From: Dehalococcoidia bacterium
Lineage (GTDB): Bacteria > Chloroflexota > Dehalococcoidia > UBA2979
Direction of reading: 5' to 3'
Length of the DNA stretch: 64,000 nt
NCBI GenBank assembly: GCA_965219085.1
Contig: OZ244720.1
Coordinates: 3,072,001-3,136,000, forward strand
Positions within the stretch are counted from its first letter, which is position 1; every line of letters starts with the position of its first letter. A program made the position numbers and the translations under genes. Positions 10,789-33,800 of the stretch are shown in pieces. Under the pieces are notes generated by a model that was given only the letters and a program-made list of their open reading frames with translations, ran no database searches and had not been told where the DNA came from.

Positions 10789-11136
10789 TCCGGACGACGC
10801 GCGCGACTGGCGGCTCTACGTCGAGGACATGATCGAGTTCGGGCAACGGGTGGCCGCATATGCGCGCGGGATGGACCAGGAGGCGTTCATCGCCGACGGA
10901 CGCACGTACGACGCCACGCTACGCAACATCGAACTGATCGGCGAGTCGGCGACGCACGTCCCGGCCCCGGTACGCCAGGCGTATCCGGGGATCGAGTGGC
11001 AGCGAATCGTGGCGACCCGGAACCGGGTGGCTCACGCCTACCTCGGTATCGACGACGACGTCATCTGGGACATCATCCAGACCGACATCCCGGAACTACT
11101 CGTCGCGCTGAGGCGCCTGTTGGAGCAGGAGCGAGC

Positions 11137-11140
<4 letters not shown>
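10781..11140 (+). CDS. HEPN/DUF86 RNase toxin
   Basis: RNRVAHAY (Rx4HxY); overlaps MNT. Confidence 0.92.
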
Positions 11141-12390
<1,250 letters not shown>

Positions 12391-12392
12391 GG

Positions 12393-12438
12393 TGTAGTGT
12401 CCCGGGACACTACAGGTGTAACGTCTGTGGACGTTACA
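12393..12438. mobile_element. 46-bp IS481-like miniature element made of two 22-bp TGT..ACA palindromes
   Basis: TGTAGTGTCCCGGGACACTACA-GG-TGTAACGTCTGTGGACGTTACA; CCTAGG on the left, and on the right once the IS110 is removed. Confidence 0.6.
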
Positions 12439-12459
12439 CCTGATATGGAGTGACCGGCT

Positions 12460-12760
12460 GTCAAGCAGCACCGGCGGTGGTCGTGGCGATCCGGCTCCGG
12501 AACGGGGGGAGATGGACGAACGAGGGCGCTGCTTCGACGACGTGTCACTCTGATATTCGCGGGTTGCCTGTGGCCTTGCCGCATGACCGTGCTTCGCCGG
12601 GAGGGGTCGCCGTCTAGCATCGCGGGTTGACGGCGCCGGGCGCCGCTGCCGCATAGGTGTACCGCGCATCCTCCTGAGCCTGCCCTCGCTCATCCATCCT
12701 CTCCTGCTCCGGAACGGCGTACCGCCGTCTCCGCCCTCGCCGCGGACCGGGCGCGTTGTA
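12460..12760 (-). ncRNA. Predicted bridge/seek RNA region of the IS1111-type element (limits approximate)
   Basis: Two loops sharing ATGCGGCA..CAACCCGCGA, carrying segments that match the target and the donor junction. Confidence 0.75.
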
Positions 12761-13933
12761 TCAGGCCGCCGCCTGCTCCCGGGCGCCGGCCTTCGGCTCT
12801 CCCGCGGATGCGGGGATACGCCGCAGCACCGCCCACAGGTAGCCCGCAAGTTCGCGGGCGACGGCGGTGTTCGCCACGACCGACGGCTTGCCGTGAGCGG
12901 CCAGCCGCCGGTGGCGGCGATAGAGCCGGGTCTGCGCCCGGTCGGCCAGCACCACGGCCCAGCCCGGCTGGCCCTCCCGCCGCTTGCGCAGGGCTGCGCC
13001 GACCCGCGGCGGGTGGCGGTAGTGCCAGGCGCTCTCCACCAGGATGCGGCGCACGTGGCTGTTCCCTGTCTTCGTGATCGGCCCCCGCCGCTGGCGCGCC
13101 CCGCTGCTGTGCTCGCTCGGCGTCAGCCCGAGGTAGGACATCAGCTGCCGGGCGCTGCCGAAGCGCGTGACGTCGCCGAGTTCGGCCAGCACCGTCATCG
13201 CCGTCACCGTGTCGACCCCGCGGAAGCAGCGCAGCAGCCCCACCGCCTCGCGGTAGTCGTCGCTGGCGGCACACGCGGCCAGTTCCTGCTCCAGCGTGCG
13301 CAGCCGCTCCTCCACGCCCTCGAGCGCGCGCAGGTAGTCGTCGAAGGTGGCCTGCGCGGCCGGGTGTTCGAAGCGCAGCGTCAGCAGCCAGCGGCGGTGC
13401 CGCAGCGTCCAGTTCCGCCCGTCGTAGGCGATGCCGCGCCGCAGCAGCAGCTTCGCCAGGCGGTGGCGCGCCCGCGTGCGGTCGGTCACGGCGTCCTCGC
13501 GCGCCCGGCAGAGGTCGCGCACCGCCTCCTGGTCGATGGTCGGGGGATGCACCGCCGTGAGCAGGTCCGCGCGCAGCAGCTCGGCGAGCTTCCGTGCGTC
13601 GCGACGGTCGGTCTTGACGCGGTCGCCGGGTCGCCTGGGGATCAGCGCCGGGGCGATCACCCGGCATTCGACGCCCTCGGCCTCCAGCCGGCGCTGCAGC
13701 GCGAAGCCGCCCGGCCCGGCCTCGTAGCAGGCCACGAGCGGCCCCGGCGCCATGCGCCGCAGGCGCTGCGCGAGCCGCTTCACCGCCTTCGGCTCGTTCG
13801 CCAGCTGCCACTCCTCGGGCCGCTCGGCCCCCGGCGCCAGCACCGCCACGTGGATCGCCCGCGCGTGTGCATCCATCCCTGCGTATGTGGTAGTCATCTT
13901 CCTGACCGGCTCCTTTCGCATGCGGCTCTGCAT
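12761..13933 (-). CDS. IS110 family recombinase/transposase (start may be 13897)
   Basis: GMDAH, CYEAGP, VKTDRRDA (DEDD), GLTPSEHSSG, GPITKTGN. Confidence 0.96.
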   Translation of the reverse strand: MQSRMRKEPVRKMTTTYAGMDAHARAIHVAVLAPGAERPEEWQLANEPKAVKRLAQRLRRMAPGPLVACYEAGPGGFALQRRLEAEGVECRVIAPALIPRRPGDRVKTDRRDARKLAELLRADLLTAVHPPTIDQEAVRDLCRAREDAVTDRTRARHRLAKLLLRRGIAYDGRNWTLRHRRWLLTLRFEHPAAQATFDDYLRALEGVEERLRTLEQELAACAASDDYREAVGLLRCFRGVDTVTAMTVLAELGDVTRFGSARQLMSYLGLTPSEHSSGARQRRGPITKTGNSHVRRILVESAWHYRHPPRVGAALRKRREGQPGWAVVLADRAQTRLYRRHRRLAAHGKPSVVANTAVARELAGYLWAVLRRIPASAGEPKAGAREQAAA

Positions 13934-13992
13934 GCCTCGCGTCTGTAACCCGCGAGTTTGCGAACTCGGAGCCGGTCACTCCATACGGTCTA

Positions 13993-15171
13993 GGGATGGT
14001 CTGATCAGGTGGCGTGTCGGGCGCGGTGGGTATCGATCAGCGTGCCGAGCCGCGCTGCGGGGGGGCGATGCCGCGGTTCAGGGGGCGATCCCGCTCCCAT
14101 TCCGCTGCGGGATCGCCCGCACGAGCGATTCCGGACGCAGCGCTCCCGCGATCAGGCGAGTTGAGGCTCGGCTCGCAACAGGTTCGTGAAGCCGAGCAGC
14201 AGCATGAGACGCTGGCGGTTCTTCTCAAGACCCCGGTAGCGGACCTGCGCGTACCCGAAGTGCCGCTTCACGTAGAGAAACGGATGCTCAGCCTTGGCGC
14301 GCACCGAGGCCTTGCGCCGCTCCGCCTGCGCCTCCTCGCCCCCCGGCGCCAGCTGCCGCCTGAGACCCGGGCGCAGCGCCACCTGCCAGCTCACCTCCGA
14401 CCCCGCGTGCTCCGGGCGCTTCTCCACTCCCTGGTAGCCGGCGTCGCCCCACGCCTCCGTCTCGCCCCCGTGCAAGAGGCGATGCGCCTCGGTCACGTCG
14501 GAGACGTTCGCCGCCGTCGTGCTCACGCTGTGGACCAGCCCCGTCCGCGCATCCGTGCCGGTGTGCAGCTTCATCCCGAAGTACCACTGCCGGCCCTTGC
14601 TGGTCTGGTGCATCTCGGGGTCGCGCGCACGCTCGCGGTTCTTCGTCGATGACGGCGCGCTGATGATCGTGGAGTCCACGATCGTGCCCTCGCGCACCTG
14701 CAGACCCTGCCGTGCCAGGTGCGCGTTGATCGTCGCGAACAGCGCCGTTCCCAGCTGATGGCGCTCCAGCAGGTGGCGGAAGTTGAGGATCGTCGTCTCA
14801 TCGGGAATCGGCTCGGAGAGGCTGAGACCGGCGAACTCGAGCATCGAGCGGGAGTCGTAGAGTTCCTGCTCCATGCCGGGGTCGCTGAGGTTGAACCAGA
14901 GCTGCAGGCAGTGGATGCGCAGCATCACGCGCAGCGCGTAGGGGCGGCGTCCGCGGCCGCGCTTCGGGTAGACGGGCGCGATGCGCTGCTCCAGCTCAGC
15001 CCAGGGGACGAGCCCGTCCATGCGCTCGAGGAACGCCTGCCGCCTCGTCTTGACCTTCTTGTGCTCGTACTCGACGCTGCCGAACGAACGCTGCTGCATG
15101 GGCCGCCCCTCTCCGGGTCGCCCCATGATCGCATCTGCTCACCCGCTCAGGCGAGTTGTTCAGACCATCCC
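13993..15171 (-). mobile_element. IS5 family element, copy A1
   Basis: TIR GGGATGGTCTGA/TCAGACCATCCC, flanked by CTAG. Confidence 0.93.
14152..15099 (-). CDS. IS5 family transposase
   Basis: IPDETTILNFRHLLE, IVDSTII, WYFGMKLH, GDAGYQG, RAKAEHPF. Confidence 0.96.
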   Translation of the reverse strand: MQQRSFGSVEYEHKKVKTRRQAFLERMDGLVPWAELEQRIAPVYPKRGRGRRPYALRVMLRIHCLQLWFNLSDPGMEQELYDSRSMLEFAGLSLSEPIPDETTILNFRHLLERHQLGTALFATINAHLARQGLQVREGTIVDSTIISAPSSTKNRERARDPEMHQTSKGRQWYFGMKLHTGTDARTGLVHSVSTTAANVSDVTEAHRLLHGGETEAWGDAGYQGVEKRPEHAGSEVSWQVALRPGLRRQLAPGGEEAQAERRKASVRAKAEHPFLYVKRHFGYAQVRYRGLEKNRQRLMLLLGFTNLLRAEPQLA

Positions 15172-15173
15172 TA

Positions 15174-16352
15174 GTGTCCTGAGTTGTTAACGCGATAAAC
15201 AAGTGGGTATGATGTTGGTACAGCGGGGTGTTGCCCGTGTGGGGCAGACGCTGGAGTGTCATGAGTACCCGACTTGGCCGGCCGACGGTGGCGGTTGTAC
15301 TGAGCGACGATGAGCGTGAGACGCTGGAACGGTGGGCGCGCCGACCGACATCAGCTCAGGCGTTGGCGCTGCGCTGCCGGATCGTGCTTGCTGCGGCAGA
15401 AGGGACCCCGAATACCGAGATCGCCGCGGCGCTTGGTTGCCATCCGGTGACCGCGGGCAAATGGCGCAGACGCTTTGCGCAGCGGCGGCTCGATGGACTG
15501 AGCGATGAGCCGCGCCCCGGGGCGCCGCGCACGATCACCGATGCACAGGTGGAAGCGGTGATCGTCAAGACGCTGGAGGAGCAGCCTCCCAACGCGACGC
15601 ACTGGTCGACCAGATCGATGGCAGCCGCGCTCGGGATGTCGCAGTCGGCGATCTCCAGGATCTGGCGCGCCTTCGGCCTGAAGCCGCACCTCGTGGAGAG
15701 CTTCAAGCTGTCGCCCGACCCGCAGTTCATCGACAAGGTCCGTGACGTGGCCGGGCTCTATCTCAACCCGCCCGACGCGGCGGTTGTGCTGTGCGTGGAC
15801 GAGAAGACCCAGATCCAGGCACTCGACCGCACCGCCCCGATGCTGCCGATGATGCCGAGCGTTCCGCGACGCCAGACCCACGACTACGTCCGTCACGGCA
15901 CCACCAATCTCTACGCGGCGCTTGACGCCGCCTCGGGCCACGTGATCGCGGACATGACCCCGCGACACCGTGCCCGGGAGTTCAAGCAGTTCCTCACCCT
16001 CATCGACCGCAGCGTGCCCGACGCACTCGCGGTGCATATCGTGTTGGACAACGTCGCCACGCACCGCACCCCGGAGATCCAGCGCTGGCTCCGGCGTCAT
16101 CCCCGGTTCACGTTTCATTTCACCCCGACCTACAGCTCCTGGATGAACCTCGTGGAGCGCTGGTTCGCGGAGCTCACCACCAAATGGCTCAGGCGCGGCA
16201 CTCATCACGGCGTCGCTGACCTGATCCGTGCAGTGGAGGCCTGGGTCGCCGACTGGAACGAGCACCCGCGCCCCTTCATCTGGCACAAGACCGCCGACCA
16301 AATCTTCGACAACCTCACCGGATATCTCAATCGCATTCCCAACTCAGGACAC
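15174..16352 (+). mobile_element. IS630 family element
   Basis: TIR GTGTCCTGAGTT/AACTCAGGACAC, TA duplication within CTAG. Confidence 0.93.
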
Positions 16353-16355
16353 TAG
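15261..16355 (+). CDS. IS630 family transposase
   Basis: HWSTRSMA, VDEKTQIQAL, LDNVATH, SSWMNLVERWF. Confidence 0.96.
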   Translation: MSTRLGRPTVAVVLSDDERETLERWARRPTSAQALALRCRIVLAAAEGTPNTEIAAALGCHPVTAGKWRRRFAQRRLDGLSDEPRPGAPRTITDAQVEAVIVKTLEEQPPNATHWSTRSMAAALGMSQSAISRIWRAFGLKPHLVESFKLSPDPQFIDKVRDVAGLYLNPPDAAVVLCVDEKTQIQALDRTAPMLPMMPSVPRRQTHDYVRHGTTNLYAALDAASGHVIADMTPRHRAREFKQFLTLIDRSVPDALAVHIVLDNVATHRTPEIQRWLRRHPRFTFHFTPTYSSWMNLVERWFAELTTKWLRRGTHHGVADLIRAVEAWVADWNEHPRPFIWHKTADQIFDNLTGYLNRIPNSGH

Positions 16356-17055
16356 CAGGGTGCTGAAAAAGGGGCGGTCGTCTGGCAGGATAGGACTGGC
16401 GGCGGGGGCGTAGCCTGGAGGCAGCCCCATGCGAGGCGACGCTGAGCGTCAGACCAACATGTTGCTGGCGGTGACGCCGGACTCCTTCATCCCCGGCGAC
16501 CACCCGATTCGCCGCATCAAGCCGATCGTCGATGCCGCGCTGCGGCGGCTCTCGCCGCTGTTCGACACGATGTACGCAACGAGCGGGCGGCCCTCGATCC
16601 CGCCCGAGCACCTGCTCAAGGCGAGCCTGTTGATCGCGCTCTACTCGATCCGCAGCGAGCGCCAGTTCTGCGAGCGGCTGCGCTACGACCTGCTGTTCAA
16701 GTGGTTCTTGGACCTCAACATCTCAGACGAGCCGTTCGACGCCTCGAGCTTCTCCAAGAACCGCGAGCGCCTGCTCGCTGCCGATGTCGCGCGCGCCTTC
16801 TTCGCAGAGGTGGTGGCCGAGGCAAAGCGCCGCCGGCTGCTCTCCGCCGACCACTTCACGGTGGACGGGACGCTGCTGGAGGCCTGGGCCTCGCTCAAGA
16901 GCTACCGCTCGCGCGACGAGCAAGAGCCGCCGCCAGGCGGCGGGCGTAACCCGGACGTGGACTTCCGCGGGCGGAGGCGCAGCCGCGATACGCATAGTTC
17001 CGGCACCGACCCGCAGGCGCGGCTGTACACGAAGACACCCCAGGACGCTAAGGGG

Positions 17056-18279
17056 TCAAGCAGCGAGGTCCTCGTGGGTGTAACGGTGTCCCCAGGCGGT
17101 CGTCTCGTCGTAGGGCAAGCGGCGCTTCAGGCAGCCATGTAGGTAGCCGACGAGACGGTTGCCGAGGGCGCGGAGCGCCTGGTGGTGGAGGTCGCCCGCG
17201 GCGCGCCGCCGATCGTAGAACTCGCGGCAGCCGGGGCTGGCCTGCAGGGAGCACAGCGCCCACTGGTCGACTGCGTCGTAGAGGCGCCGGTTGCGGACGA
17301 AGCGGGCTTTCACGGTGTGCTTGCGGCCGGATGCTACCGTCAGCGGCGACGTGCCGGCGTAGTTCCTGCGGGACTTCGCCGACTCGTAGCGTTCGGGGTC
17401 ATCCCCGAACTCGCCAAGCACCCGGGCGCCGAGGACCACGCCGAGACCGGGCAGGGAACGGTAGATACCGGCGTCCGGGTGCTGCTCAAAATGGCTCGCG
17501 AGCTCGGCCTCGAGCTCCTTGATCTGACGGTTGATCTCGCCGATCACCCTCATTGCCGCACTGGTGCTCGCGGCGAATGCCTTGCTCACCGCGGGCGGAG
17601 CCTCGAGCTGCGGTGAGCGCAGCGCGTCGCGGACCTCGGCGGCGCGCCGCTCGATGTTGCGCCGGCGGCCGCCGCGGCGCAGCGCGGAGCGGATCTGGGT
17701 GATGCTCAGCCGCGCCGCCTCGCGCGGGCCAGGCGCTGTCGCCAGCACGCCCACCGCGTCGTCGTGCGCGAGGTCGGGGAAGGCCTCCAGCGCACCCGGA
17801 AAGTACTCCCTGAGCGCGTTGCGCAGCCGGTTGGTCTGGCGGACGCGGTCCCAGATCAACTGCTGGTGGGCGCGGGCGAGGATGCGCACCGCGGCGGCTT
17901 CGTCGCTGTCGCCGGCGACCTCCCGGTGGTTGTGCCGGTCGGTGCGGACGAGGTCGGCGAGCAGCTTCGCGTCGCCGGCGTCGGACTTGGCGCCGCCGAC
18001 GTGGTGGCGGTCGCGGTAACGCGACGCCGAGCGCGGGTTGATGGCGTAGACGTGGTAGCCGGCCGCGAGCAGTGCCGCGACCCAGGGGCCGCGGTCCGTC
18101 TCGATGCCGACGATCACCTCACCCGGCCCTGAGGCGTACCCGGCGACCAGTCCGTGCAGGGCAGTGATGCCCTCCACCCCTTCGGGCAGACGCCGGGCGG
18201 CGAGCCGCTCGCCCGCGTCGTTCATGAGATGGACGTCGTGGTGGTCTTCGGACCAGTCATCGCCCAGGTACAAGGCCAT
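17056..18279 (-). CDS. IS110 family recombinase/transposase
   Basis: GDDWSEDHHD, GIET, AKSDAGDA, YAGTSPLTVASG. Confidence 0.95.
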   Translation of the reverse strand: MALYLGDDWSEDHHDVHLMNDAGERLAARRLPEGVEGITALHGLVAGYASGPGEVIVGIETDRGPWVAALLAAGYHVYAINPRSASRYRDRHHVGGAKSDAGDAKLLADLVRTDRHNHREVAGDSDEAAAVRILARAHQQLIWDRVRQTNRLRNALREYFPGALEAFPDLAHDDAVGVLATAPGPREAARLSITQIRSALRRGGRRRNIERRAAEVRDALRSPQLEAPPAVSKAFAASTSAAMRVIGEINRQIKELEAELASHFEQHPDAGIYRSLPGLGVVLGARVLGEFGDDPERYESAKSRRNYAGTSPLTVASGRKHTVKARFVRNRRLYDAVDQWALCSLQASPGCREFYDRRRAAGDLHHQALRALGNRLVGYLHGCLKRRLPYDETTAWGHRYTHEDLAA

Positions 18280-18289
18280 CGTGTTTCAG

Positions 18290-18520
18290 TTCCTCTCCCG
18301 CTTCGCGCTGCTCGGTGCGACCCGGCGGGTTGGTTCCTGCGACGGCCTAATGGATCAGTGCTCGATGGCACGACACCCCATGAGTGCTGCAGAACAACCC
18401 GGAATACCAGCAGGGGCTCGGTCTTCGTGAAGCGGTCCAGAAGCCGCAGGGATCAGCTGAGAGCTCACCGGCTGGCAGGGTCCAGAACCAGTCTGCCAGA
18501 GAACCTCTGGCCGCTGGTCG
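18290..18520 (-). ncRNA. Predicted bridge RNA region of the nested IS110 (limits approximate)
   Basis: Four segments match left/right target and left/right donor in canonical order. Confidence 0.78.
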
Positions 18521-18780
18521 GGCCCCATTAGGGGTCGGGGCAGACGGCGAAACTGAGCTACATGGGCCATCTGCTGACCGAGAACCGCCACGGCCTGGTG
18601 CTGGACGTGGAGTTGACCGAGGCGAACGGGTACGCCGAGCGCGAGGCGGCGGTCACGATGCTGGAGCGCAGCGTGAGCGGCTGCGGGACGCTGGGCGCCG
18701 ACCGCGGCTACGACACGCGCGACTTCGTGGCGGAACTGCGCGCTCGCGGCGTGACGCCGCACGTGGCGCAAAACGACCGC

Positions 18781-20145
18781 GGTCACGTCCCTGCAAGTGG
18801 TGTAACAGCACCATCCTGATCATTTGCTAGCTGGCGGTCTGCAGTAGCACCTCCTCGCCTGAGGCGACCTCGGCCACGGCCGCCGGCAGCGGCTGCAGCA
18901 TCGTCATGTAGCGCCGCCCCTCCGCCCACTCGTCGTGCTGCTCGGCGAGCACGGCGCCGACCAGCCGCACGACGGCGGCACGGTTGGGGAAGATGCCGAC
19001 GACGTTGGTGCGCCGCCGGATCTCCTTGTTGAGCCGTTCCAGCGGGTTGTTCGACCAGACCTGCCGCCAGTGGGCGACCGGGAAGGCGGTGAATGCCAGG
19101 ATCTCCGGGTCGGCGTCGGCGAGCAGCGCCGCGGCTTCGGGGAAGCGCTCGGCGAGCTGCTCCACCACGCGGGCGTGTTGGGCCTGCACCTCGGCCGCCG
19201 AGGACTGCTCGTAGATCGTCCGCACCGTCGTCGCCACCAGCTTCTCGGCGCTCTTCGGCACCCGGGTCAGCAGGTTGCGCATGAAGTGCGTGCGGCAGCG
19301 CTGCCAGGAGGCGCCGGCGAAGACCGTCGCGATCGCCGCCCGCAGTCCCTGGTGGGCGTCCGAGGTCACGAGCTCGACCCCGGACAGGCCGCGCGCCACG
19401 AGGCCGCGCAGGAAGCCCAGCCAGAACGCCCCGTCCTCGGAGGTGCCGACGTCGATGCCCAGCAGCTCGCGCTTGCCGGAGGCGTTGACGGCGGTGGCGA
19501 CGACGACGCTCACCTGCACGACGCGGCCCTCCTCGCGCACGAGCTGGGTGAGCGCGTCGAGCCAGAGGTAGCGGTAGGGGCCTGAGTCGAGGGGCCGCTC
19601 GAGGAAGCTCGAGACGACCTCGTCGAGTTCAGCGCACATGCGCGAGACCTGGCTCTTGGAGATGCCGTCGCAGCCGAGCGAGCGCACGAGGTCGTCGACG
19701 CGGCGCGTCGAAACGCCCTCGACGTAGGCCTGCGTGACCACGGATACCAGGGCGCGCTCTGAGCGCCGCCGCGGCTCGAGCAGCGAGGGGAAGTAGCTGC
19801 CCTCGCGCAGCTTCGGGATGCCCAGTTCGATCGTGCCCACGCGCGTGTCCCAGCGCCGCGGCCGGTAGCCGTTGCGCCGGGTCAGGCGCGTCTCGCTGCG
19901 CTCGCCGTGAGCGGCGCCGATCTGCGCCGAGACCTCGGCGTCCATCACCGCCTGGGCGAGCAGCGCGACCGCCTCGCGCAGGAAGTCGAGGTCAGCTCCG
20001 TCCGTCTGCTTGCGCAGCAGTTCCAACAAGTCCACGCTCTCCTTGACCACAGTCGTCCTCCTCCACGTGACTCTTCTTCTTGTGAAGGATGGCGCTGTGG
20101 TCTCCTACGTCTACCTCCTGTGACACCACTTCCTGGGACGCTACT
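18781..20145 (-). mobile_element. IS256 family element
   Basis: Imperfect ~26-bp TIRs; 8-bp TSD ACGACCGC at 18773-18780 and 20146-20153. Confidence 0.92.
18827..20050 (-). CDS. IS256 family transposase
   Basis: RNGYR, IPKLREGSYFP, SDAHQGL, WQRCRTHF, NPLERLNKEIRRR. Confidence 0.96.
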   Translation of the reverse strand: MVKESVDLLELLRKQTDGADLDFLREAVALLAQAVMDAEVSAQIGAAHGERSETRLTRRNGYRPRRWDTRVGTIELGIPKLREGSYFPSLLEPRRRSERALVSVVTQAYVEGVSTRRVDDLVRSLGCDGISKSQVSRMCAELDEVVSSFLERPLDSGPYRYLWLDALTQLVREEGRVVQVSVVVATAVNASGKRELLGIDVGTSEDGAFWLGFLRGLVARGLSGVELVTSDAHQGLRAAIATVFAGASWQRCRTHFMRNLLTRVPKSAEKLVATTVRTIYEQSSAAEVQAQHARVVEQLAERFPEAAALLADADPEILAFTAFPVAHWRQVWSNNPLERLNKEIRRRTNVVGIFPNRAAVVRLVGAVLAEQHDEWAEGRRYMTMLQPLPAAVAEVASGEEVLLQTAS

Positions 20146-20649
20146 ACGACCGCGGCCGCCGCAGCGCCGTGGATGGGCGCACCACGCGGCATCGCGGCTA
20201 CAGGCAGAGTCAGAAGCGACGCAAGATCGTGGAGCAGGTCTTCGGCTGGATGAAGACCGTGGGCGGCGGGCGCAAGCTGCGTTTCGTGGGCCGCGAGCGC
20301 AACCGCTGTTGGCTGGAGCTCACCGCCGCCGCCTACAACCTCGTGCGCATGGCCAGGCTCGGAGACCGCCGCGGCGTAGGCGCAGTGCGCCCTCCGCCCC
20401 GCCAGGGAGCCCTCAGAGGCCCCCGGGGGCCGGTCAGGAGGCCACGATCACGAACCCGGAGGCGGCCTCAAGCCGCCTCTCGCCACTCCGAGACCCCGGA
20501 AGGCGCTTCTTCAGCACCCTGCTAGCCGATATGCCGCCGCACGAGCCGCCCGGAACGCAGGCCGGAGGCGGTCCCTGCGCGCGACCGCGATCACGGCGGT
20601 CCTGGGTGCGCTCGCTTTCGCGTTTGCGCTGTGGGGAGTGCTGCCGGTA

Positions 20650-21874: not shown

Positions 21875-24800
21875 ATGAGGAGCATGCCGCGCTGCGCCGG
21901 GTTGCCGCTTGCAAGGGGCTGCGCTCTGTTGGCCGTGCTGCTGTCGCTCGTGCTCGAGAGCGGCGGAGCAGGGGCACAGACGTCCGTCGCCGCCCCCACG
22001 ATCGAGTCGATTACCCCGGCCGACGGCTCGCTCAGCGTGGCCTGGACCGCGCCCACCGGCGTGACGGGCATCACCGCCTACGACCTGCGCCACATCCGCA
22101 GTGACGCGCCCGACAAGGCAGACGCCAACTGGACAGAGATCGAGGACATCTGGACGGCCGGCTCCGGCGACCTGACGTACACCCTCAGCGGCCTCGACAA
22201 CGGCGTCGGCTACGACGTGCAGCTGCGCACGGTCACCACGACCGACGGCGCGTGGTCAGGGACGTCGACCGGCACGCCCCAGATCCCCGGTCCCGTCATC
22301 ACCTCGGTCGTCGTCGGTGACGAGGCGCTGACGGTCGTCTGGACGGCGCCCGTGGTCGCCGCGACGACTGCGATCGGCGCCTACGATGTGCGCTACATCG
22401 AGAGCTCGGCTGCGGATAAGACCGACGACCAATGGACAGTCGTCGAGGACTTCTGGACCTCCGGGAGTCTGTACGGTGTGCTCGCCGGACTGACCAACAC
22501 CACGGGCTATGACGTACAGGTGCGCGTCGTTGCCGCGACCGACGGCGCCTGGTCGGCGACGGCCACAGGAACCCCTGCCGAGCACGGCGGCACGACTGCG
22601 ACAGCCACGGCCCTCACGCTCGGCACGCCTCTGGGTGGAACCATCGATCCGGGAACCGATGAGGACTACTTCCAGCTCGTGTTGAGCAGCGCGGCCACCA
22701 TTCTGATCCGGACCTCCGGCGACCTCGACACCGTGGGGGAGCTCCAGGACAGCGGCGGGACGGAGCTTGAAAGCAACAACGACGGCCGGCTCCCGCAGAG
22801 CCCGAAGAACTTCGTCATCTGGCGCGTCGCTAGTGCAGGGACTTACTACGTCAAGGTGTCCAGCAACGACGGCGCTACTGGGGCGTACGTCCTGCACGCC
22901 ATCGCGATAGAGGACACCACTGCGACGTCCAATGCCATCACGGTCACCCCCGACAGCTCTACGCTGGCTCTGGCTGATCACTCCAAGGACACGGACTATT
23001 TCAAGCTCACGTTGGCGGAAACCACCGAGCTCGTGATGCGCACATCGGGCCCCATTCACGATACCGAGATAGAGATCCTCGACAACAGCGCAGCTCAGAT
23101 TGCCGAGAACGACTACGGCCTGCTCCCGCCACGAACCCAGCACGCTGCTGTGCGAGCGAGCCTCGGGGCTGGGACGTACTTCATCAAGGTCAGGTCGCAG
23201 TCCGCGCACAACACCGGGCCCTACACCCTCCATGTCGATGCTCTCGCCGAGCCTGGCGATGCGACCACCGATGCAGTTCCATTGGTTCTGCACCATGCGG
23301 AAGGGGGGAACATCGACCCTGCAAGCGATGCGGATTACTTCCGTATCGACCTCAGCGAGACCACACACGTACGACTCCGGGCCGTGAGCGAAACCGTGGA
23401 CATCGACGGGTCGCTGCTCGACAGCGGCGGGCAGCCAATCCAGGCCAACATCTATGAAGAGACGCTGCTGAGCGGCGAGGCGATGGCGTTTACGTTCCGC
23501 GCAACCCTGAGTGCGGGGACGTACTACATCAAGGTGAACCGGTCCGGCGGAGCGGACACCGGACCCTACGCGATCCTGCTCGTCGACGACGCGAATCTGG
23601 AGAGGCTGCTGGACCAGTGCTCTGGACTCGACACCACCGTCAGCGACCCGCTCTACGGATGCCAGTGGAACCTGAAGAACACGGGCCAGTTCGGGGGAAC
23701 GGCCGGCGAGGACATCAATGTCGAACCGGTGTGGAACGGCGGAAACCTGGGTGCCGGCATCAACGTGGTGATAGTTGATACGTACCTGGACCACCGGCAT
23801 GAAGACCTGACGACTGACCAGTCAAGAAGCCACGAGTACCACACCCAGTCCGGCTCCGGCTACTCGACCTTCCTGCACGGTACGGAGGTGGCGGGAATTG
23901 TTGCAGCGCGCGATAACAGCCTCGGCGTGAGGGGAGTAGCGCCACGGGCAACCCTCATTGAGCACGCGGGGCTCGGACTGTCCATCAGTATCGGTCCAGA
24001 CCCGGACAAGCCGGACGCCATGACCCGCAACATGGACGTAGCGGCCGTGTCCAACAACAGCTGGTCGGGAAGCCTCGGCCCCGGGCCAGAGACCGCCCCG
24101 GACGCCTGGGAGACGGCACTGCTCACGGGTGTGACCGAAGGCTATGGGGCAAAAGGCGTCTTCTATGTGTTCTCGTCGGGCAACGAGGCGCAGTTCGGGA
24201 GTAACGCAAACCTCGACGAGTACATTAACCTTCGCCTGGTGACGGTGGTCTGCGCCGTCAACGACCTGGGGCAGCGCAGTGCGTATTCGGAGGAGGGCGC
24301 GAACCTCTGGGTCTGCGCCCCCTCCGATGACCCCACCCGGGACCGCCCGGGGATCTTCACGACTGCCGGCTACAGCGCTTACACCGACAGCTTTGGCGGG
24401 ACCTCCGCAGCGGCTCCGACCGTCTCGGGCGTGGCAGCACTGGTGCGCGCGGCCCACACGAGCCTGACGTGGCGGGACGTGAAGCTGATTCTCGCCGCCT
24501 CGGCGCGCAAGAACGACGCGAGCAACAGCGGATGGGAACAGGGCGCTCTCGAGTACGGCTCGAGCAGTCTGCGCTACGACTTCAACCACGAGTACGGATT
24601 CGGCGTCGTCGACGCAGGCGCCGCAGTGACGCTGGCCGACGGATGGACGAATCTCCCGCCCGCGATCCAGGCAACCGTCGAGTGGGATGGCGCCAGTGTG
24701 GTGATCCCCGACCTCGTGGACCCCAACATCCCGCTCGGCATCACATGGACGATGGTCGTGGGCCCCGAGGTGGAGTTCACCGAGTTCGTGCAAGTCAACC

Positions 24801-27800
24801 TTGAGTTCGTCGAGGTAAGCACTGGACTCGACGTGCCGCAGTTCCGGGAACTGGATGTGACGCTGGAGTCCCCGTCGGGCGCGGTCTCCGTGCTGGCGCC
24901 GGCCGTTACCGACGGTGTGACGTGCAGCTCCGAGGGTTCCTGCGGGCTGGAGGGCGGGCTCCGCCTTGGCTCAGCCAGGCATCTGGGCGAGAACCCCGAG
25001 GGTGCGTGGAAACTGCGCGTCTTCGACCGCGTCACCGGCAGTACACCGGGCACGCTCAAGTCGTGGAGTCTCACCGTGTACGGGCACAGGTCCAGCCCGG
25101 CTGCCCCGGTCATTGACTCGGTGACCGCGGGCAGCGAGTCGCTCACCGCCACCTGGACCGCCCCGAGCAACACTGGCGCGTCCGACATCACCGCCTACGA
25201 CGTGCGTTCCATCCGCAGCGACGCGACCGACAAGTCCGACAGCGAGTGGACAGTCGTGGACGACGCCTGGACCAGCGGTGACTTCGACTACACCATCAGC
25301 GGGCTGACCGGGAACGTGCAGTACGACGTACAGGTGCGTGCGGTCAACGCCGAGGGCGACGGCCTCTGGTCCGCCACCGAAACCGGCACCCCGACGACAG
25401 ACAAGGCCCCGACCATCGACTCGCTGACGCCCGGGGACCGCGCGGTCACCGTTGAGTGGACGGCCCCTACCAATGCCACTCTGGGAACGGTCACCTCCTA
25501 CGACCTGCGCTACATCCGCAGCGACGCCTCGGACAAGGCAGACGCCCGCTGGACTGTGATCACCTCGATCTGGACCGCCGGCTCGCTCGATTACACCCTC
25601 AACCCGACGCCCAGCCTCGTCAACGGGGTGTCCTACGACATGCAGGTACGGGCGGTAGTGGGGACCGACCAACACCCCTGGTCGGGCGTCCGCACCGCCA
25701 CACCGCGCACCACACCCGGCACTCCGACGATCGGCACCATCACCGGGACCGACGGTTCGCTCACCGTCGAGTGGAGCGCGCCCGCGAGCGACGGCGGGGC
25801 CAACATCACCGCCTACGACGTGCGCCACATCCGCAGCGATGCCACCGACAAGTCCGATGACCAGTGGACGGTCGTGGACGACGCCTGGACCCCTGCCAGC
25901 AGCACTCCGGAGTACACGGTGAGCGGACTTACGACGGACGTGCAGTACGACGTGCAGGTGCGCGCGGTGAACGCCGCGGGCGACGGTCTCTGGTCGGCGA
26001 CCGGGACCGGCACGCCGCGGACCCCGCCCGGGGCGCCCGAGGCGGTGCAGGTCTACGTCTATGTGACGGGCAAGCTGGAGGTGCGCTGGTCGGCGGCGGC
26101 ATCCCCGTCGATCACGGGCTTCAAGGTGCAGTGGCGTTCAGGCACGGAGGAGTGGGACGAGTCGCGCTCCGACGAGGTCGACCCGGCGACCGCCCACGTG
26201 GAGTGGTGGCCGAAGCCGGACAGCCGCCGCTACCGGCATACGCTGGACGGGCTCACGAATGGCGCCGAGTACGAGGTGCGGGTGATTGCGTCCAATACCG
26301 GCGTGGACGGCGAGGCGTCTGCCGTGGCTACCGGGACGCCGCGGTCCGACTCCACACACGCCCAGGCGGCAACGTTCATCGAGAACGAACTGGTCAGCGT
26401 ATACGAGGACGCCAATCCGTGGCTCCGGGTCGCGTTCGACTGGATCGACGCCGCCAGCACGGATGGCGACCCATACGGCACCAGTTCCGGAATCGAATTC
26501 GAACTCGGAAGCGCGACCTGGGGGTTAGTCGTTCATTCGTGCTTCAACAGCGCCGGCGCGAAGTTGCACGACTCGCTTTGGGACAGGTGGGCGCGGCACT
26601 GCCAGATCACCCGGATGTATATCGAATGGGATTTCGTGCATGTGATCCCGCTCATCACCCACGAACTCGCGCACGTGATGACGCTGACGAACCGTCTGGA
26701 TGGCTCGCCCGAGGCACCGCTCGCCATCGCGCAGCTGTACTTCGCCCGGGCCGACATCGGCTGCGAGGGCTGGCTGCCCGCGCGAGAGTTGCTGGCCGAC
26801 ATGCTCATGGTGAGTGTGTTCGGCGATGCCGGATTGCGGGTGGCTGGCTACATTCGGGGGAGCTATTGCAGCACGGATGAAGATCAAGTGGAGGAGGCGC
26901 TGGGAGTCGTCCGCACGGCGCTGGCGGGCGAGATGCCGGCGTGGTTGGCCGAGACCTACCAGGACGGCGAAGGCAACCTCGATCTGGAGCAACTGTGGTC
27001 CCACATCAAGGCCGAGGGGGACCCTTCCCCGGTGATGAGGGATCTGATGCGCGGCGCCTTCGGCGGCCTCTGCAGATCCGACGCGCTGTGGAACAATGCG
27101 ATACGCATTCCGTGGCGGGACGGTGGCTGCGTGCCCCAGGCGCCCCCGGGCCTGGATGCTGTCGCCACCGTAGACGGCGTCATGACGGTGTCCTGGCAGT
27201 CGCCCGACAACGACGGGGGCTCACGGATTAGCGGCTACAAGGTGCAGTGGAAGTCCGGCGCGCAGGACTACGACACCTCCCGCGAGGCGTCGGTGACCGA
27301 CCTCGCGGACCTCTCGCACACGATCGAGGGCCTGTCCCACGGCGTCGACTACACGATCCGGATCCTGGCCTACAACATCAACGGGGACGGCCCCGCCTCC
27401 GAGGTGACCAGGACCGCGGTGGGGCTCGAAGCCGCCCTCGGGACGCTGACCCTGGCCGGCACGACGCTCTACCCCGCCTTCAGCAGCACCACGAGCTCGT
27501 ATGCGGCAGTGACGGGCCATGCCGCCACGCAGATCACGATCGCCGCCACGGCGGCGGATGCCGACGCCACCGTCGCGTTCCTCGACGTCGACGGCAACGC
27601 CCTCACGGACGCCGGCGCGGCCGACGAGTTCCAGGTGAACCTGTCGGTGGGCGCCAACGTCATCCAGGTCCGGGTGACGGCGCAGGACGGCGTCGCCTCT
27701 ACCTACACCGTGACCGTCACGCGGGCGGACGAGAACACCTCGCTGAGCCCGCCGGCGAGCGATCCCGTCGCCGCGTTCCCGTCGTCTGCCCGTTATACGA

Positions 27801-30800
27801 TCACCTTCCGGGGCGACTGGACCACCGATGTCACGCCGGAGGGGCGACCGGGCGGGGCCCACTTCTCTCCGCTCATCGGCGGGGTGCACAACGCCGGCGT
27901 CACCTTCCTCGTGAGCGGAGAGGCGGCGAGCGCCGGAATCGAGTCGATGGCGGAAGTTGGACAGACGGCTCAACTCCGCAGCGAGGTCAATACGGCGATC
28001 GACGCCAGCCCGGCGACGGCCCTCGCCGTCATCAGCCCGTCCGGCAACATCAGTCCGACTGGCTTGAAGACGGTGAGCAACGTGGAGCTCACGACCGAGT
28101 TCCCGCGGGTCACGCTCACGACGATGATCGCGCCGAGCCACGACTGGTTCGTCGGCGTCTCCGGGCTGCCCCTGCTCGACGCGCAGGGCGACTGGCTGAC
28201 GTGGCTCCGCGTTTTTCTGTATCCGTGGGATGCCGGCACCGAGGAGGGCGACGACTTCTCGCTCAGCCCCAGCGTCGACACCAGCCCGCGCGGCGTCATC
28301 CACAGCATCCGCGGGACGGGCAAGTTCACGACCAGGCGGATCGCGAGTCTCACGTTCACGCTGCAGTCGATCTCACCATCCTTCCCGGACACCGAGACCG
28401 GCGCCCGCACCATCCCTGAGAACACCGCCTCGGGTCAGGACATCGGCGAACCGCTCGTCGCCACGGATCCCGACAGCGGCGACTCGCTGAGCTACTCGCT
28501 GGGCGGACCCGACGCGGGCTCCTTCGCGATCGTGGCCTCGACGGGTCAGCTGCGAACGAGGGCCGCCCTCGACTACGAGACCGCGTCCAGCTACTCCGTC
28601 GCGGTGACCGCCACGGACACGAGCGGGCTGAGCGACACCATCGACGTGACGATCACGGTCACCAACGTCGAGGAAGCAGGTGTTGTTTCGCTCTGGCCGG
28701 TGCAGCCGCGAGTGGGGACCGTGCTGCGGGCGAGCCTAAGCGACCCCGACGGGGGCGTGCGGTCGGTGTTCTGGCGGTGGCAGCGGTCATCGGACCAGGC
28801 CTCCTGGGCCAGCGTGTCCGGTAGCGGCGCACGCTACACGCCGAAGAGCGCTGACGAGGGGATGTACATCCGGGCCCGTGCGACCTACGCGGACGGAGAG
28901 GGCACGGGCAAGAGCGCCGAGGCCGAATCGGGCCAAACCGTCGGCGCGCGTGAGGGCGCGCCCGGGATCACCGTCGTCACGCTCGTCTCCGGCCTCAGCA
29001 TTCCCTGGGATCTCGCCTTCGCTCCCGACGGGACGATGCTGCTCACGGAGCGTGGCGGAGCGCTCAAGGCCCGGCTCACCGGCGGCACGGTCCAGACCGT
29101 GACGGCGGACTTCAGCGACCTGTTCGTGAGCGGGGAGGCCGGACTGATGGCGATCCTCGTCGATCCCGGATTCGCCTCCAACCGGCGGTTCTACACCTGC
29201 CAGGCGCACACCGGGCGCGTCGTGCAGGTGATCGCCTGGACCATGAACTCGGACTACACCGCGGCCACGCGTGTCGCGGATCCCCTCGTCGGGGGCATCC
29301 CCGCGGCCAGCATCCACAACGGTTGCCGGCTGCGCTTCGGCCCGCACGGGTTCCTCTGGATCGCGACGGGAGACGCTGCATCCGGGACGGTACCGCAGGA
29401 CCTCAGCTCGCTGGGCGGGAAGGTGCTCCGCGTCGATGCGTCGACGGGCGTCGGCGCGCCCGGGAACCCGTTCGCCGCCTCGGCGCGCGTCTACACCCAC
29501 GGCCACCGCAATCCGCAGGGCCTCGCTCGCCGCCCCGGCACGAACCAGATGTGGTCGGTCGAGCACGGGCCGACTGTGGACGACGAGATCAACCTGCTGA
29601 CCTCGGGCGGCAACTACGGATGGGATCCGGTACCCGGCTACGACCAGTCCGTTCCCATGACCGACCGCGTGAAGTTCCCCGACGCGGTCGAGGCCAGATG
29701 GTCGTCCGGCGACCCGACGCTGGCGACCAGCGGCGGCATCTTCCTCCACGGCCCCGACTGGGAGGAGTGGAGCGGCCGGCTCGCGGTCGCCACGCTCAAG
29801 ACCCGGTCGCTCCGGATCTTCGAGTTCACCGCGGCCGGGAGGTTCGTGAGCCAGGTGGTCGTGCCCGAGCTCGACGGTACCTACGGGCGCCTCCGGACCC
29901 CCATGCTGGGCCGCGGGGGCGCGCTCTACCTCACCACATCGAACGGCGGAGGCGCGGACCGCATTCTCAAGGTCGTCCCCAGCCGGCCGCCGGCGTTTGC
30001 GGCCACCACGGACACCCAGGAGGTGGCGGAGAACAACAGCACGTCGGCGGTCGTCGCCACCGTCACCGCCACCGACCCGGACGGCGAACAGCTCACCTAC
30101 ACGCTCGGTGGGCGTGACGCGGACGCTTTCACCGTCGCGAACCCGGCCGCCGGAGGACTGCGAGCCAACGTCCAGTTCGACCACGAGACGCGGAGTTCGT
30201 ACGAGGTCGTTGTGACCGCTACGGACCCCTACGGCCTGAGCGACAGCGTCACGTTGACCGTCACCGTGACCAACGTCGACGAGCCCGCGGATATCTCGTT
30301 CGTGGCGACGGGCGGCGTCACCGTGAACAACAACGCGCTCACCGTGGCCGAGAACCATGACGGCACGCTCGCCACCTTCAGCGCGAACGACCCGGAGAAC
30401 GACCAGACCCTCACGTACGAGTGGTCGGTGGGCGGGACGGATCGCCTCGACTTCGCCCTCACCGCCGCCGGCGTGCTCTCCTTCGTGAACGTCCCCGACC
30501 ACGAGCGCCCCGCCGACTCGGGCGGGAACAACGTCTACGGCATCACGGTCAGCGCCCGCGACAGCGACGGCAAGACGGGCAGCCTCGCCCTCACCGTCAC
30601 CGTCGACCCCGTCAACGAGCCGCCCGCGATCAGCGGCGACGCCAGGCCGGGCGTCGAGGAAGGCGGCACGCTCCTCGTCGGGACGTACCGGGCGTCGGAC
30701 CCCGAGAGCGCCACCATCGCCTGGCAACCGCTCGCCGGGAGCGACAGCGAGCAGTTCAACTTCACGTCCCCGAACGGGAGGCTGGAGTTCAAGGCAGCCC

Positions 30801-33800
30801 CGGACTACGAGGACGCGACCGACTTCGGCCCGAACAACGTCTACGACGTGACGCTGAGTGTCTCGGCCGGTGCCCACACCACGACATTGGCTGTCGCCGT
30901 CAGCGTCACGAACAGGGAAGAGCCCGGGATGCTCGCGCTGCCCGCAACGCGGCCGCAGGCCGAGGCGGACTACACCGCCACCCTCGGCGACCCCGACGGC
31001 GTGCGGTCGACGGCGTGGACGTGGGAGCGCTCGACAAGCCGCGGCGGCCCCTGGACGGCCGTCACCGGGGCCGCCGACAGCACCACGACGAGCGTCTACA
31101 CGCCCGTCGCGGGAGATATCGGCTACTACCTGCGCGCGACCGCCGCATACACCGACGGCCACGGGCCGAACAAGAGCCTCGTCGCCGTGTCCACCAACTC
31201 GGTCCTGGCAGCCCCCGTCGTCAACAACCCGCCGACGTTCACGGAGGCGAACCCGACCCGCAGCATCGCCGAGAACGCACGGGCGGATGCCCCGGTCGGG
31301 GAACGCGTCACCGCCAGCGATCCCGACCCGGGCAACACGGTGGGGTACGAGCTCGAGCCCGCATCGGATCTGTTCACGATCGACGGCGCCAGTGGCCAGA
31401 TCCGGGTGAAGGAGGCAGCATCGCTCGACCACGAGACGGCGCCCTCGCACACGGTCACCGTCAAGGCCAGCGACAGCTCCAATGCGTTCGACACCGTCGA
31501 GGTCACGATCACGGTCACGGACGTGAACGAGCCGCCGGACGCCGTCGCCGATGCCCCCGGCAGTTTCGACGAGGACACCGAGATCACCATCGACGTCCTC
31601 GCCAACGACAGCGACCCCGAGCAGGACCCGAGCGAGTTGCTGCTGACGGTGGTCACCCCGCCGCTCAACGGACGCGCGAGCGTGAATGAACCCGCGAGTG
31701 CGGGCGATCGCCGCACGATTACCTACGAGCCCAACGCCGACTACCACGGCGCGGACACGTTCACCTACCGGGCCCGGGACACCGGCAGCCCGTCACTCTC
31801 GAACATCGCCACCGTCTCCGTGGAGGTGGACCCAGTGAACGACGCGCCCGCGTTCGCGTCGCAGGCCGCGACCCGCAGCGTGCCGGAGAGCGCGGAGGCC
31901 GGCGATCACGTCGGCGCGCCCGTGACGGCGACGGATGTCGACGAGAACGACACGCTCGCGTACAGCCTCTCGGGCCCCGACGTGTTTTCGTTCGTCATCG
32001 ACGCCGACGGCCAGATCACGGTCGGCACGGGGGTCACGTTCGACGCCGCCGCGACGCCCGAGTACGCCGTCACGGTCGAGGCCCGCGATCGCGCAGGCGC
32101 CCCGGCGAGCATCGACGTGACCATCACCGTCACGGCCGGGCCGGTCGTCAGTGGCGGTGGCTTCGTTGGCGGTGGCGGCGGCGGCCCCACAGGCCCGACA
32201 CCAAGCGAGGTCGAGTTCGAGTGGAACGTCAAGCGCGACATCGAAGCGCTCGACTCGAGCCACGACTCGCCCACCGGCTCCTGGTCCAATGGCTCCATCC
32301 TCTGGCTCCTCGAGAACGGCTCGGGCGCCGACGACGCCATCTACGCCTACGACCTCGAGACAGGCGGGCGTGTCGAGGACTTCGAGTTCGACCTCGACGC
32401 AACCAACCGCGCGCCTCGCGGTGTCTGGTCCCACACGAGCGTGGTCTGGGTCTCCGACAGCGGCCAGAACCGCCTCTTCGCCTACGACCTGGAGAGCGGC
32501 GAGCGCCTCCCGGAGCGCGACATCGCGCTCGCCGAGCGCAACCGCGCCGCCCGCGGCATCTGGTCCAACGGCGAGCGGATGTATGTGCTCGACGGCGGCA
32601 AGGACAGCCTCTTCGCCTACGACCTGGAGAGCGGCGAGCTGCTCGCCGAGTTCGCCTTGGACGACGCCAACGGTGACCCCCACGGCATCTGGTCCGACAG
32701 CGTCACGGTCTGGGTCTCCGACCACGGCGCCAAGCGGCTGTTCGCCTACCGGCTGCCCGTGCTGCCGGACGACGATGAAGCCTCCGATGGGGAAGACAAG
32801 GAACTCGAACGCGTCCGTGACGAAGAGTTCGGAGGGTCCCGGGAACTGACGAAGGCCAGCAACAACAGCCCACGGGGCATCTGGTCTGGCGGCGACGTGA
32901 TGTACGTGGCCGACGAGAGCGACGACAAGGTCTACAGCTACAACATGCCCGACGCGATCGACGCCCGCCTCGCCTCGCTCACGCTCAGCGGCGTCGACAT
33001 CGGGGAGTTCCTGCCGCGCCGCACGGACTACGAAGGCGACATCGCCGAGGGCGTGACGGAGACGACCGTCGACGCGGTGGCGGTGCAGCGCCGCGTGGAT
33101 GTCGCCATCGATCCGCCCGATGCCGACGAGGAGGCGGACGGCTACCAGGTGGCCCTCCAGGACCTCGGCGAGATCACCATCACCGCCAGCTCGGCGGACG
33201 GCAGCCGCAAGAAGGTCTACCGCGTTAGCTTCCCGGAGGCGGCGTGGGACCCGGCCCGCGATCCCTGGCCCCACTGCCTGCGCGGCGCGGTCGCCGAGGG
33301 GTTCAGCCTCGTCGTCTTCGAGGGTGGCAGCATCGAGGACCTCGATGCCTGCGCGGAGGGCCGGGAGATCGTGACCCTCTACGCCCTGCATGAGGGCGTC
33401 TACCGCTCCTTCATCCTCGGGGGTCCGGACTTCGTCAACCGCGAGTTCGCTGAGCTGTTCGCCGACGGGCTCCCGGTCATGACGCCGCTGGTCGCCGGCA
33501 GCAACGGACCGCCCTCGGCGGACCCGTTCGGGGATGGCCTTGACGCCGCTGGGCCGCAGCCGTGGCCGGAGTGCCTGCGCGGGGACGTTGTCGAGGGCTT
33601 CAGCCTCGCGGTCTACGAGGGAGGCAGCGTCGAGGAACTGGAGGCGTGCGCCGAGAGCCAGCAGGTCACGGCCCTCTACGCCCTGCACGGCGGCGAGTGG
33701 GTCTCCTACATCCTCGGAGCTCCGGAGTTCGCGAACGCGGGGTTCCGGGAGCTGTTCCCGGACGGCCTGCCGGTCCTCATGCCGCTGGTCGCCAGGAGCG

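Follow-up and report, generated by a model that had tools for sequence, protein, structure and literature searches.

RNA-guided target choice by insertion sequences (ISs) of the IS110 and IS1111 groups, the placing of the RNA on the 3' side in IS1111-group elements and the natural reprogramming of such guides are described in the available text of two papers (PMC11187229; PMC11208160). IS1111 members have subterminal inverted repeats of ∼ 11–13 bp with 7- and 3-bp extensions, a long non-coding region (NCR) downstream of the gene that encodes the transposase (tnp) and a transposase with the motif GL-P----S(t)G (PMC11187229). Here we analyse a 64,000-nucleotide stretch of a Dehalococcoidia bacterium (GCA_965219085.1, contig OZ244720.1, positions 3,072,001 to 3,136,000, forward strand; the whole stretch is called the window), in which positions 12442-13989 hold an element that is almost certainly an RNA-guided IS1111-group insertion sequence with the guide RNA described below. 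Taken together, the data make it very likely that this guide is set to the junction between the end of an IS481-type element and its bordering CTAG. The RNA-guided mechanism of IS1111 elements is already known; the IS481 end plus CTAG is a new type of target. The features of the element are listed in window coordinates.

12442-13989, minus strand: IS1111-group element (IS110 family), 1548 bp between two CT cores, assigned by profile matches
12440-12441, no strand: left copy of the CT core, placed by reading the junction and by comparison with an empty site
13990-13993, no strand: right copy of the CT core (13990-91) and AG (13992-93), which together with the left CT form a split CTAG
12445-12459, no strand: subterminal inverted repeat ATGGAGTGACCGGCT, after a 3-nt terminal extension (12442-12444), read directly
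13970-13984, no strand: subterminal inverted repeat, the reverse complement of 12445-12459, then the 5-nt extension ACGGT (13985-13989)
12761-13897, minus strand: transposase gene with DEDD/RuvC-like and Transposase_20 domains and GLTPSEHSSG; start at 13897 or at the upstream ATG 13933
12483-12728, minus strand: structured part of the 3' NCR (putative seekRNA or bridge RNA), a long closing stem around two stem–internal loop–stem modules
12654-12661, minus strand: loop 1, 5' guide UACACCUA, in the same sense as the target TACAC + CT + A
12614-12619, minus strand: loop 1, 3' guide UGCUAG, the complement of CT+AGCA
12585-12590, minus strand: loop 2, 5' guide ACGGUC, matching the element end ACGGT + core C
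12550-12556, minus strand: loop 2, 3' guide AUAUCAG, the complement of CT+GATAT at the other element end
12459-12464, minus strand: TTGACA, candidate −35 box of a circle-junction promoter, 17 nt from the element 3' end

The transposase matches PF01548 (E 2.8e-20), PF02371 (E 2.1e-22) and, with 256.5 bits against a cut-off of 140, the NCBIfam model NF033542 'IS110 family RNA-guided transposase'. The GLTPSEHSSG of its translation fits the IS1111 motif, and its open frame is listed as 12761-13933 (minus strand) with a probable start at 13897. The inverted repeat is a perfect 15 bp with extensions of 7 nt (ACGGT+CT) and 3 nt (GAT), and 322 nt of non-coding sequence lie downstream of tnp (12442-12763) as against 92 nt upstream (13898-13989). 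On the plus strand the left junction reads GACGTTACAC-CT-GATATGGAGTG, that is GTTACAC-CT-GATATGG with CT at 12440-41, and the right junction reads CACTCCATACGGT-CT-AGGGATGG, with CCATACGGT on the element side and CT at 13990-91. A first-pass annotation, made by a model from the letters of this stretch, had given the same positions, and all of them, including the junctions and the guide words, proved correct.

The four guide words, written as minus-strand DNA, are TACACCTA (12661-12654), (A)TGCTAG (12620-12614), ACGGTC (12590-12585) and ATATCAG (12556-12550). The scaffold that they share, ATGCGGCA..CAACCCGCGA, is present at just two places of the 64-kb window, 12557-12584 and 12620-12654 on the minus strand, and in none of 100 dinucleotide-preserving shuffles. 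The single-sequence fold has a z-score of −2.5, and its shape agrees with an RNAalifold consensus built from 14 variants, in which 11 of the 61 pairs show compensatory changes. Each module is predicted to consist of an outer stem, an internal loop, an inner stem UGCGG/CCGCG and a hairpin. In module 1 of the consensus both guide words are unpaired within the internal loop; in module 2 part of the 5' word (GUCAU) is paired with GUGAC. The two exact scaffold occurrences and the consensus fold thus bear out the earlier proposal of two loops on a shared scaffold in the 3' NCR, and the worry raised with it, that the guides might be buried in stems, does not apply to the loop-1 words. Its assignment of the loop-2 words to the left and right donor ends agrees with the sequence reading. 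A promoter and terminator scan of 12380-14010 on both strands returned no site, and no sigma-70-type promoter in the integrated copy. The TTGACA near the element 3' end is kept in the three relatives compared; no convincing −10 box was seen across the circle junction. Contigs of two metatranscriptome runs cover parts of tnp only (13215-13549; 12850-13222; 13554-13703) and are uninformative on expression of the NCR.

Evidence for guidance also comes from relatives. The family comprises 99 genomes including that of the window (G000); an order-level search returned the identical 99, and the sampling was therefore not widened. Close relatives of the NCR are present in eight further genomes (G004, G068, G076, G077, G078, G080, G082 and G085), which together with G000 provide seven loop-1 variants, each given here by its left word and the flank at which it is found.

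TACAC: flank TACAC-CT-AG
TACAG: flank CTACAG-CT-AC
(C)TCACC: flank CCTCACC-CT-AA
GGGAC: flank GGGAC-CT-GG
GCCTG: flank GCCTG-CT-AG
GGACA: flank GGACA-CT-AG
GACCT: flank GACCT-CT-AG

A scripted count gave 31 different combinations of guide and 14-nt left flank, with a chimeric copy from G000 (copy 4, see below) retained as a mismatch. At 27 of these sites the copy's own guide matched the flank at all five positions, and the remaining four matched at 4, 4, 3 and 2 of 5, the last being the chimeric copy. When flanks were compared with the guides of the other variants, 1 of 217 comparisons was perfect. On the right side, where the table was read by eye, the first two bases past the core agree at nearly all sites and agreement decays further out, giving 2–4 consecutive matches beyond the core. 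These data suggest that the left guide and core are strictly matched at natural sites, and the right guide by only 2–4 bases. Loop 2 and the element ends are constant among the six closest aligned forms; in the distant G004 and G082/G085 elements they change jointly, for example ACAGT / TGTAT with ACUGUC / AUACAAG. A public DNA run (X7) carries two alleles, one with the guide words of the window copy and one with those of a G076 variant (G076a), which within the loop-1 module (12614-12661) differ only at guide positions 12617, 12619, 12654, 12655, 12660 and 12661, plus 12646. Covariation of guides and flanks had been proposed as a check of the first-pass annotation, and the loop-1 words do track their flanks. 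Protein family, IS1111 anatomy and loop-1/flank co-variation together lend strong support to reading the NCR as the source of a guide RNA.

One relative, found in G082 and G085 (L066-L075, L093, L099), is 1.99 kb long and 69% identical, with two tandem seekRNA modules, between which lies a second copy, 138 bp long, of a segment of tnp. In module 1 the target loop matches the observed sites GGGAC-CT-GG. Only the module 2 donor word, AUAUGAG, matches the present element end, and the 'target' loop of module 2 is AUAUCAG, the donor word of the window element.

G000 holds five copies or fragments of the element. Copy 1 (in the window) and copy 2 share 99.6% identity, each with an open frame of 390 aa; their right flanks are both AGGGATGGTCTGA and diverge after 13 nt, and their left flanks differ. 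Copies 2 and 3 are separated by 4 kb in a stretch populated by ISs. Copy 3 is missing its final ∼ 370 nt, and its right flank, CT-AGCAGCGCC (CT-AGCAGC), matches the 3' guide over CTAGCA. In the first-pass annotation ATGCTAG had been set against CTAGCAT, of which only CTAG was found to match; this holds at the window site, and copy 3 extends the match to CTAGCA. An empty paralogous locus (G000:C1:1670609-1670631) reads ..GGGACACTACAC-CT-AGGGATGGTCTGAAC.. (the left side also as ..GTCCCGGGACACTACAC), and the ∼ 40 nt shown on each side are the same as the flanks of copy 2. Insertion was therefore precise, with one CT per side, and the idea that removal of the element with one CT restores the site is backed by an actual locus that lacks the 1548 bp + CT. 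Copy 4 (G000:C1:3172964-3175997) is chimeric: its left part, with a nested IS110 element and 601 bp of flank, is identical to that of copy 5. The rest of it is 89% identical to the window copy, and its loop-1 words (AAGCA-CU / reverse complement CTGATGT) do not fit its flanks.

On its left, copy 2 adjoins the tip of a 1.07-kb element whose 322-aa frame (L002:556-1524) matches NF033577 (IS481 family) with 327.6 bits against a cut-off of 224. A fuzzy search of G000 found 12 IS481-type tips, each preceded by CTAG+N (the CTAG being split by the element at the occupied tip), with N being C seven times, G four times and A once. Where N = G the opposite strand reads TACAC, and the copy 2 site is among these four tips. 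One IS481-type copy carries a perfect GCTAGC duplication. The features on which the earlier assignment to IS481 had drawn, ACA ends and NCTAGN sites, are thus found at these tips. The reading frame of the IS481-type transposase lacks its own stop codon and runs to ..HYT-TAG inside the flanking CTAG (G000:C1:1670620-1670622). At the copy 2 site this TAG becomes TGA (core T + element GA), which leaves the IS481 gene intact. For ISLxc2 and ISLxx4, two IS481 members from Actinobacteria, the available text of PMC2516522 reports comparable inverted repeats, duplication of NCTAGN and a target that contains the stop codon.

Copy 3 is fused with the terminal 167 bp of an IS481-type element, arranged and oriented as a deletion of the junction would leave them. 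Copy 1 adjoins a short remnant whose first palindrome consists of two IS481 repeat tips fused at the palindromic GTCCCGGGAC. The features flanking copy 1 are the following.

12388-12391, no strand: CTAG on the hsdR side of the IS481-type remnant; read on the other strand, part of a vacant TACACCTAG
12392-12439, no strand: 48-bp IS481-type remnant with two palindromes, GTGTAGTGTCCCGGGACACTACA and GGTGTAACGTCTGTGGACGTTACAC, the first reusing the IS481-type inverted-repeat tip
12435-12439, no strand: left target TACAC, the last 5 nt of the 48-bp remnant, by sequence reading
13994-15170, minus strand: IS5-family element with GGATGGTCTGA.. ends (NF033581 match), forming the right flank and outside the guide specification

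The bases matched wherever they can be read are TACAC-CT-AG at both intact copies and, at copy 3, CT-AG and the following bases only. The corresponding 9-mer TACACCTAG is vacant at four places in G000.

Vacant site 1: full IS481 of the empty site
Vacant site 2: outer end of the IS481 fragment beside copy 3
Vacant site 3: far side of the 48-bp remnant, window 12388-12396
Vacant site 4: G000:C1:1428196-1428206, where the 9-mer continues as the perfect 11-mer TACACCTAGCA

The fourth site lies between the dapA stop codon and a 150-bp miniature inverted-repeat transposable element (MITE), beside a 37-nt inverted-repeat-like stretch that merely resembles the IS481 repeat. These positions support the view that the 9-mer is confined in G000 to places at which CTAG borders an IS481-type end (..ACTACA) or a short remnant of one. 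The earlier proposal of an IS481 terminus as programmed target stands in so far as all three insertions and all four vacant 9-mers in G000 lie at IS481-type ends or remnants; it is limited by the fact that these are three copies in one genome with a short overlap. We consider it probable that IS481-type ends plus CTAG are the natural target class of the element, which in that case may be said to parasitize the footprints of IS481.

Several observations weigh against this assignment. The guide variant of the window occurs in three copies, all in G000, and the CA of its 3' guide is matched at one of the three sites (copy 3) and unmatched at copies 1 and 2. No whole IS481 lies beside copy 1, only the CTAG-bounded 48-bp stretch with its two palindromes (12392-12439). 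The left flank of copy 3 is lost, and its link to IS481 would depend on the assumed deletion. Two of the four vacant sites lie at short inverted-repeat-like remnants; the 37-nt stretch at site 4 was found in 0 of 98 other family genomes by a pattern search with 3 mismatches, and its IS481 origin is unconfirmed. Only 4–5 target bases, TACA(C), come from the IS481 end. The 9-mer is not enriched (∼ 7.7 expected from base composition, 4 vacant + 2 split observed), and the argument for IS481 therefore rests on where the sites are, not on their number. The pattern GTACACCTATGCGGCANCGNCG gave one match in contigs of species-representative genomes and two in metagenome contigs (records of the own genome possibly being excluded), none element-like beyond the pattern; all three are chance matches in unrelated DNA, and two of them read as coding. 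An Rfam scan of 12000-14500 with E up to 1 matched no family.

The sibling variants have landing places of a similar kind. All three copies of the GCCTG variant in G076 have the reverse complement of CAGGCTGCT.. on their left, which is the end of an IS5/IS1182-like element; this left neighbour is a MITE in one copy, a full-length end in another and just 9 nt in the third. The GGACA variant in G004 adjoins a 44-nt remnant of an IS630-type repeat. A search for whole ISs next to these variants, IS481 for that of G076 and IS630 for that of G004, showed only inverted-repeat remnants of 26 nt and 44 nt. The TACAG variants lie mostly within an IS1380-family transposase gene (NF033539, 332.4 bits), and one G077 copy is inserted exactly at CTACAGCTACAACATGCC, within the protein motif ..KVYSYNMPDAIDARL... 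These sites make multi-copy DNA, often the border of another IS, the usual landing place of the lineage. CTACAGCTACAACATGCC itself is present in ∼ 35 places of G000 (e.g. C1:594075; window ∼ 21090 and ∼ 32932), the motif being repeated in many genes.

The lineage is in turn a host. A 1506-bp IS110-group element with a 419-aa transposase (NF033542, 158.2 bits) is inserted in the donor-loop scaffold between CTGATATTCGC and GGGTTGCC, a point equivalent to 12560/12561 in the window. G000 has it at C1:1083100-1084605 and 3174362-3175867 (L118), and it occupies the same point in two host variants, in G000 and G076 (L080, L122, L123); a truncated copy is present in G004 (L082). The 5' non-coding region of the G000 copy contains GATATTCGC, identical to the 9 nt that adjoin its own insertion point on the left. 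This invader looks like an RNA-guided IS aimed at the guide-RNA gene of another RNA-guided IS. We tentatively suggest, as a possibility and no stronger, that the lineage specializes in IS borders, swapping its 5-nt left guide among CTAG-flanked IS termini (TACAC for IS481-type, GCCTG for IS5/IS1182-like elements and their MITE, GGACA for IS630-type), and is itself invaded at the donor-loop scaffold. If true, mobile elements would here be nested on three levels, and on two of these the element would locate its host by guide RNA.

At a GC content of 0.698, CTAG is ∼ 7-fold under-represented in G000 (1277 seen, 9191 expected). It borders IS481-type, IS5-type, IS630-type and the very abundant IS5/IS1182-like elements, and a visible share of all CTAGs stands at such ends, which include ∼ 44 of the IS5/IS1182-like element and its 150-bp MITEs, 21 of IS5-type and the 12 IS481-type tips. 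IS630 elements insert at CTAG and duplicate TA, and IS5-type elements duplicate YTAR. The window itself contains a train of ISs of five families (12388-20524) separated by CTAG, in the order truncated hsdR, CTAG, remnant, CT[element]CT-AG, IS5, CTAG, IS630, CTAG and IS5/IS1182-like element. The last of these is broken by an IS110-family element (tnp 17056-18279, minus strand, 191.6 bits) and an IS256-family element (18827-20050). An hsdR gene (10996-12387) is cut short by the train; its C-terminal part was not found in the open reading frames checked downstream of the train. Just past the train lies a 3982-aa open reading frame at 21875-33823 (plus strand).

The guide might merely specify a 9–11-nt word and its link to IS481 might be incidental, with no adaptation, since CTAG targets fall in IS pile-ups. 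We regard this as unlikely, although it survives better than the other alternatives. CTAG is scarce and most CTAGs with conserved neighbouring sequence are IS borders, five IS families stand head to tail with CTAG between them at 12388-20520 of the window, only 4–5 target bases are IS481-derived, and close variants have non-CTAG targets (CTACAG-CT-AC and CTCACC-CT-AA); all of this would fit an incidental link. Against it, the three insertions and four vacant 9-mers of G000 all lie at IS481-type ends or remnants, and two sibling variants are set in the same way, to the terminal 5 nt of other ISs whose ends are flanked by CTAG, a repetition of the same target type that is hard to ascribe to accident. 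An incidental link departs from targeting of IS481 ends plus CTAG only on whether the choice of target was selected.

It is far less probable that the true target is the IS5-family end, CTAG-GGATGGTCTGA, which both intact copies adjoin through their common right flank. The 3' guide specifies CTAGCA, not CTAGGG, and the right flank of copy 3 is no IS5 end. Of the 21 IS5-type ends two are occupied and one is the vacant paralogue after TACAC; the other 18 neither follow TACAC nor carry the element. Across variants it is the left-side word that is always matched. The adjacency has a simpler cause, because IS5-type and IS481-type ends are alike bordered by CTAG in G000. Equally improbable is that the copies arose when flanking ISs were duplicated or recombined, or through a protein that recognized the palindromic remnant: copies 2 and 3 are 4 kb apart among ISs, copy 4 is chimeric and the palindrome to the left of copy 1 can form a hairpin, but the left flanks of copies 1 and 2 are unlike, their IS5 neighbours present different ends, the empty paralogous site records a clean insertion of 1548 bp + CT, and protein-only recognition leaves guide–flank co-variation over 31 sites unexplained.

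We therefore return to an element set by its RNA to IS481 ends plus CTAG. Its anatomy, the co-variation of guide and flank, the precise insertion relative to the empty site and the locations of the sites are observed; from these we infer RNA production, circle formation, the chemistry and any selective reason for the choice of target. The 3' NCR would encode a seekRNA or bridge RNA with two internal loops on a duplicated scaffold. In the excised circle the donor loop (ACGGUC / AUAUCAG) would pair with both strands of the abutted ends ..ACGGT-CT-GATAT.., and the target loop (UACACCUA / UGCUAG) with both strands of TACAC-CT-AG(CA). Strand exchange by the DEDD transposase at the CT core would give a single landing orientation with CT on each side, and insertion would split the CTAG just outside the IS481 end. 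As the 9-mer appears confined to places where IS481-type ends or remnants meet CTAG, IS481 activity would itself make the landing sites.

IS110/IS1111 recombinases are under development as programmable insertion tools, and their natural target choice and its change are poorly charted. This locus offers a natural series in which almost identical scaffolds vary at the guide positions and each have insertion sites of their own. A strictly matched left guide and core with only 2–4 matched right bases bears on off-target prediction for the subgroup. The targeting rule that the series suggests, the use of multi-copy harmless sites made by other ISs at the rare CTAG, would extend what is known of IS4321 and IS5075 in Tn21 ends. 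In a full-text literature search, with supplementary target logos outside its scope, no link of the IS110/IS1111 families to IS481 ends or CTAG was found; one paper, in its available text, mentions bridge RNA, IS110 and IS481 together, with IS481 merely listed among IS families.

IS621 targets repetitive extragenic palindromic (REP) sequences. IS4321 and IS5075 (IS1111 family) reportedly land in Tn21-family repeats; the Tn21 target lies within a 38-bp repeat. Like the element described here, these two are IS1111-family members that target the terminus of another mobile element. Their host is the repeat of a Tn3-family transposon, whereas ours is an IS end plus the adjoining CTAG, and the cut falls 1 nt outside the IS481 end, leaving the IS481 element whole, in contrast to a target within the repeat. 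IS621 (IS110 group) is comparable in that, in the available text of Durrant et al. 2024 (PMC11208160), its bridge RNA has internal loops for target and donor, with left and right guides around a CT core that are separately programmed. It differs in that its RNA lies upstream of the recombinase gene, where ours lies downstream, and, as far as the same text goes, in the right-side guide, which in our element is matched only 2–4 nt beyond the core at natural sites. The closest likeness is to ISEc11, ISPa11, ISKpn4 and ISPst6 (IS1111, seekRNA; Siddiquee et al. 2024, PMC11187229). They share with it a DEDD transposase with the GL-P----SG motif, subterminal inverted repeats with 7- and 3-nt extensions, a long NCR on the downstream side of tnp, an RNA with one word per target strand (the top-strand word first) and close relatives that are naturally reprogrammed. 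The transposase is longer here (∼ 378 aa, compared with 330–350 aa), the element is known from sequence alone, and, unlike any of these four, it has as its target the junction of an IS481-type end with CTAG.

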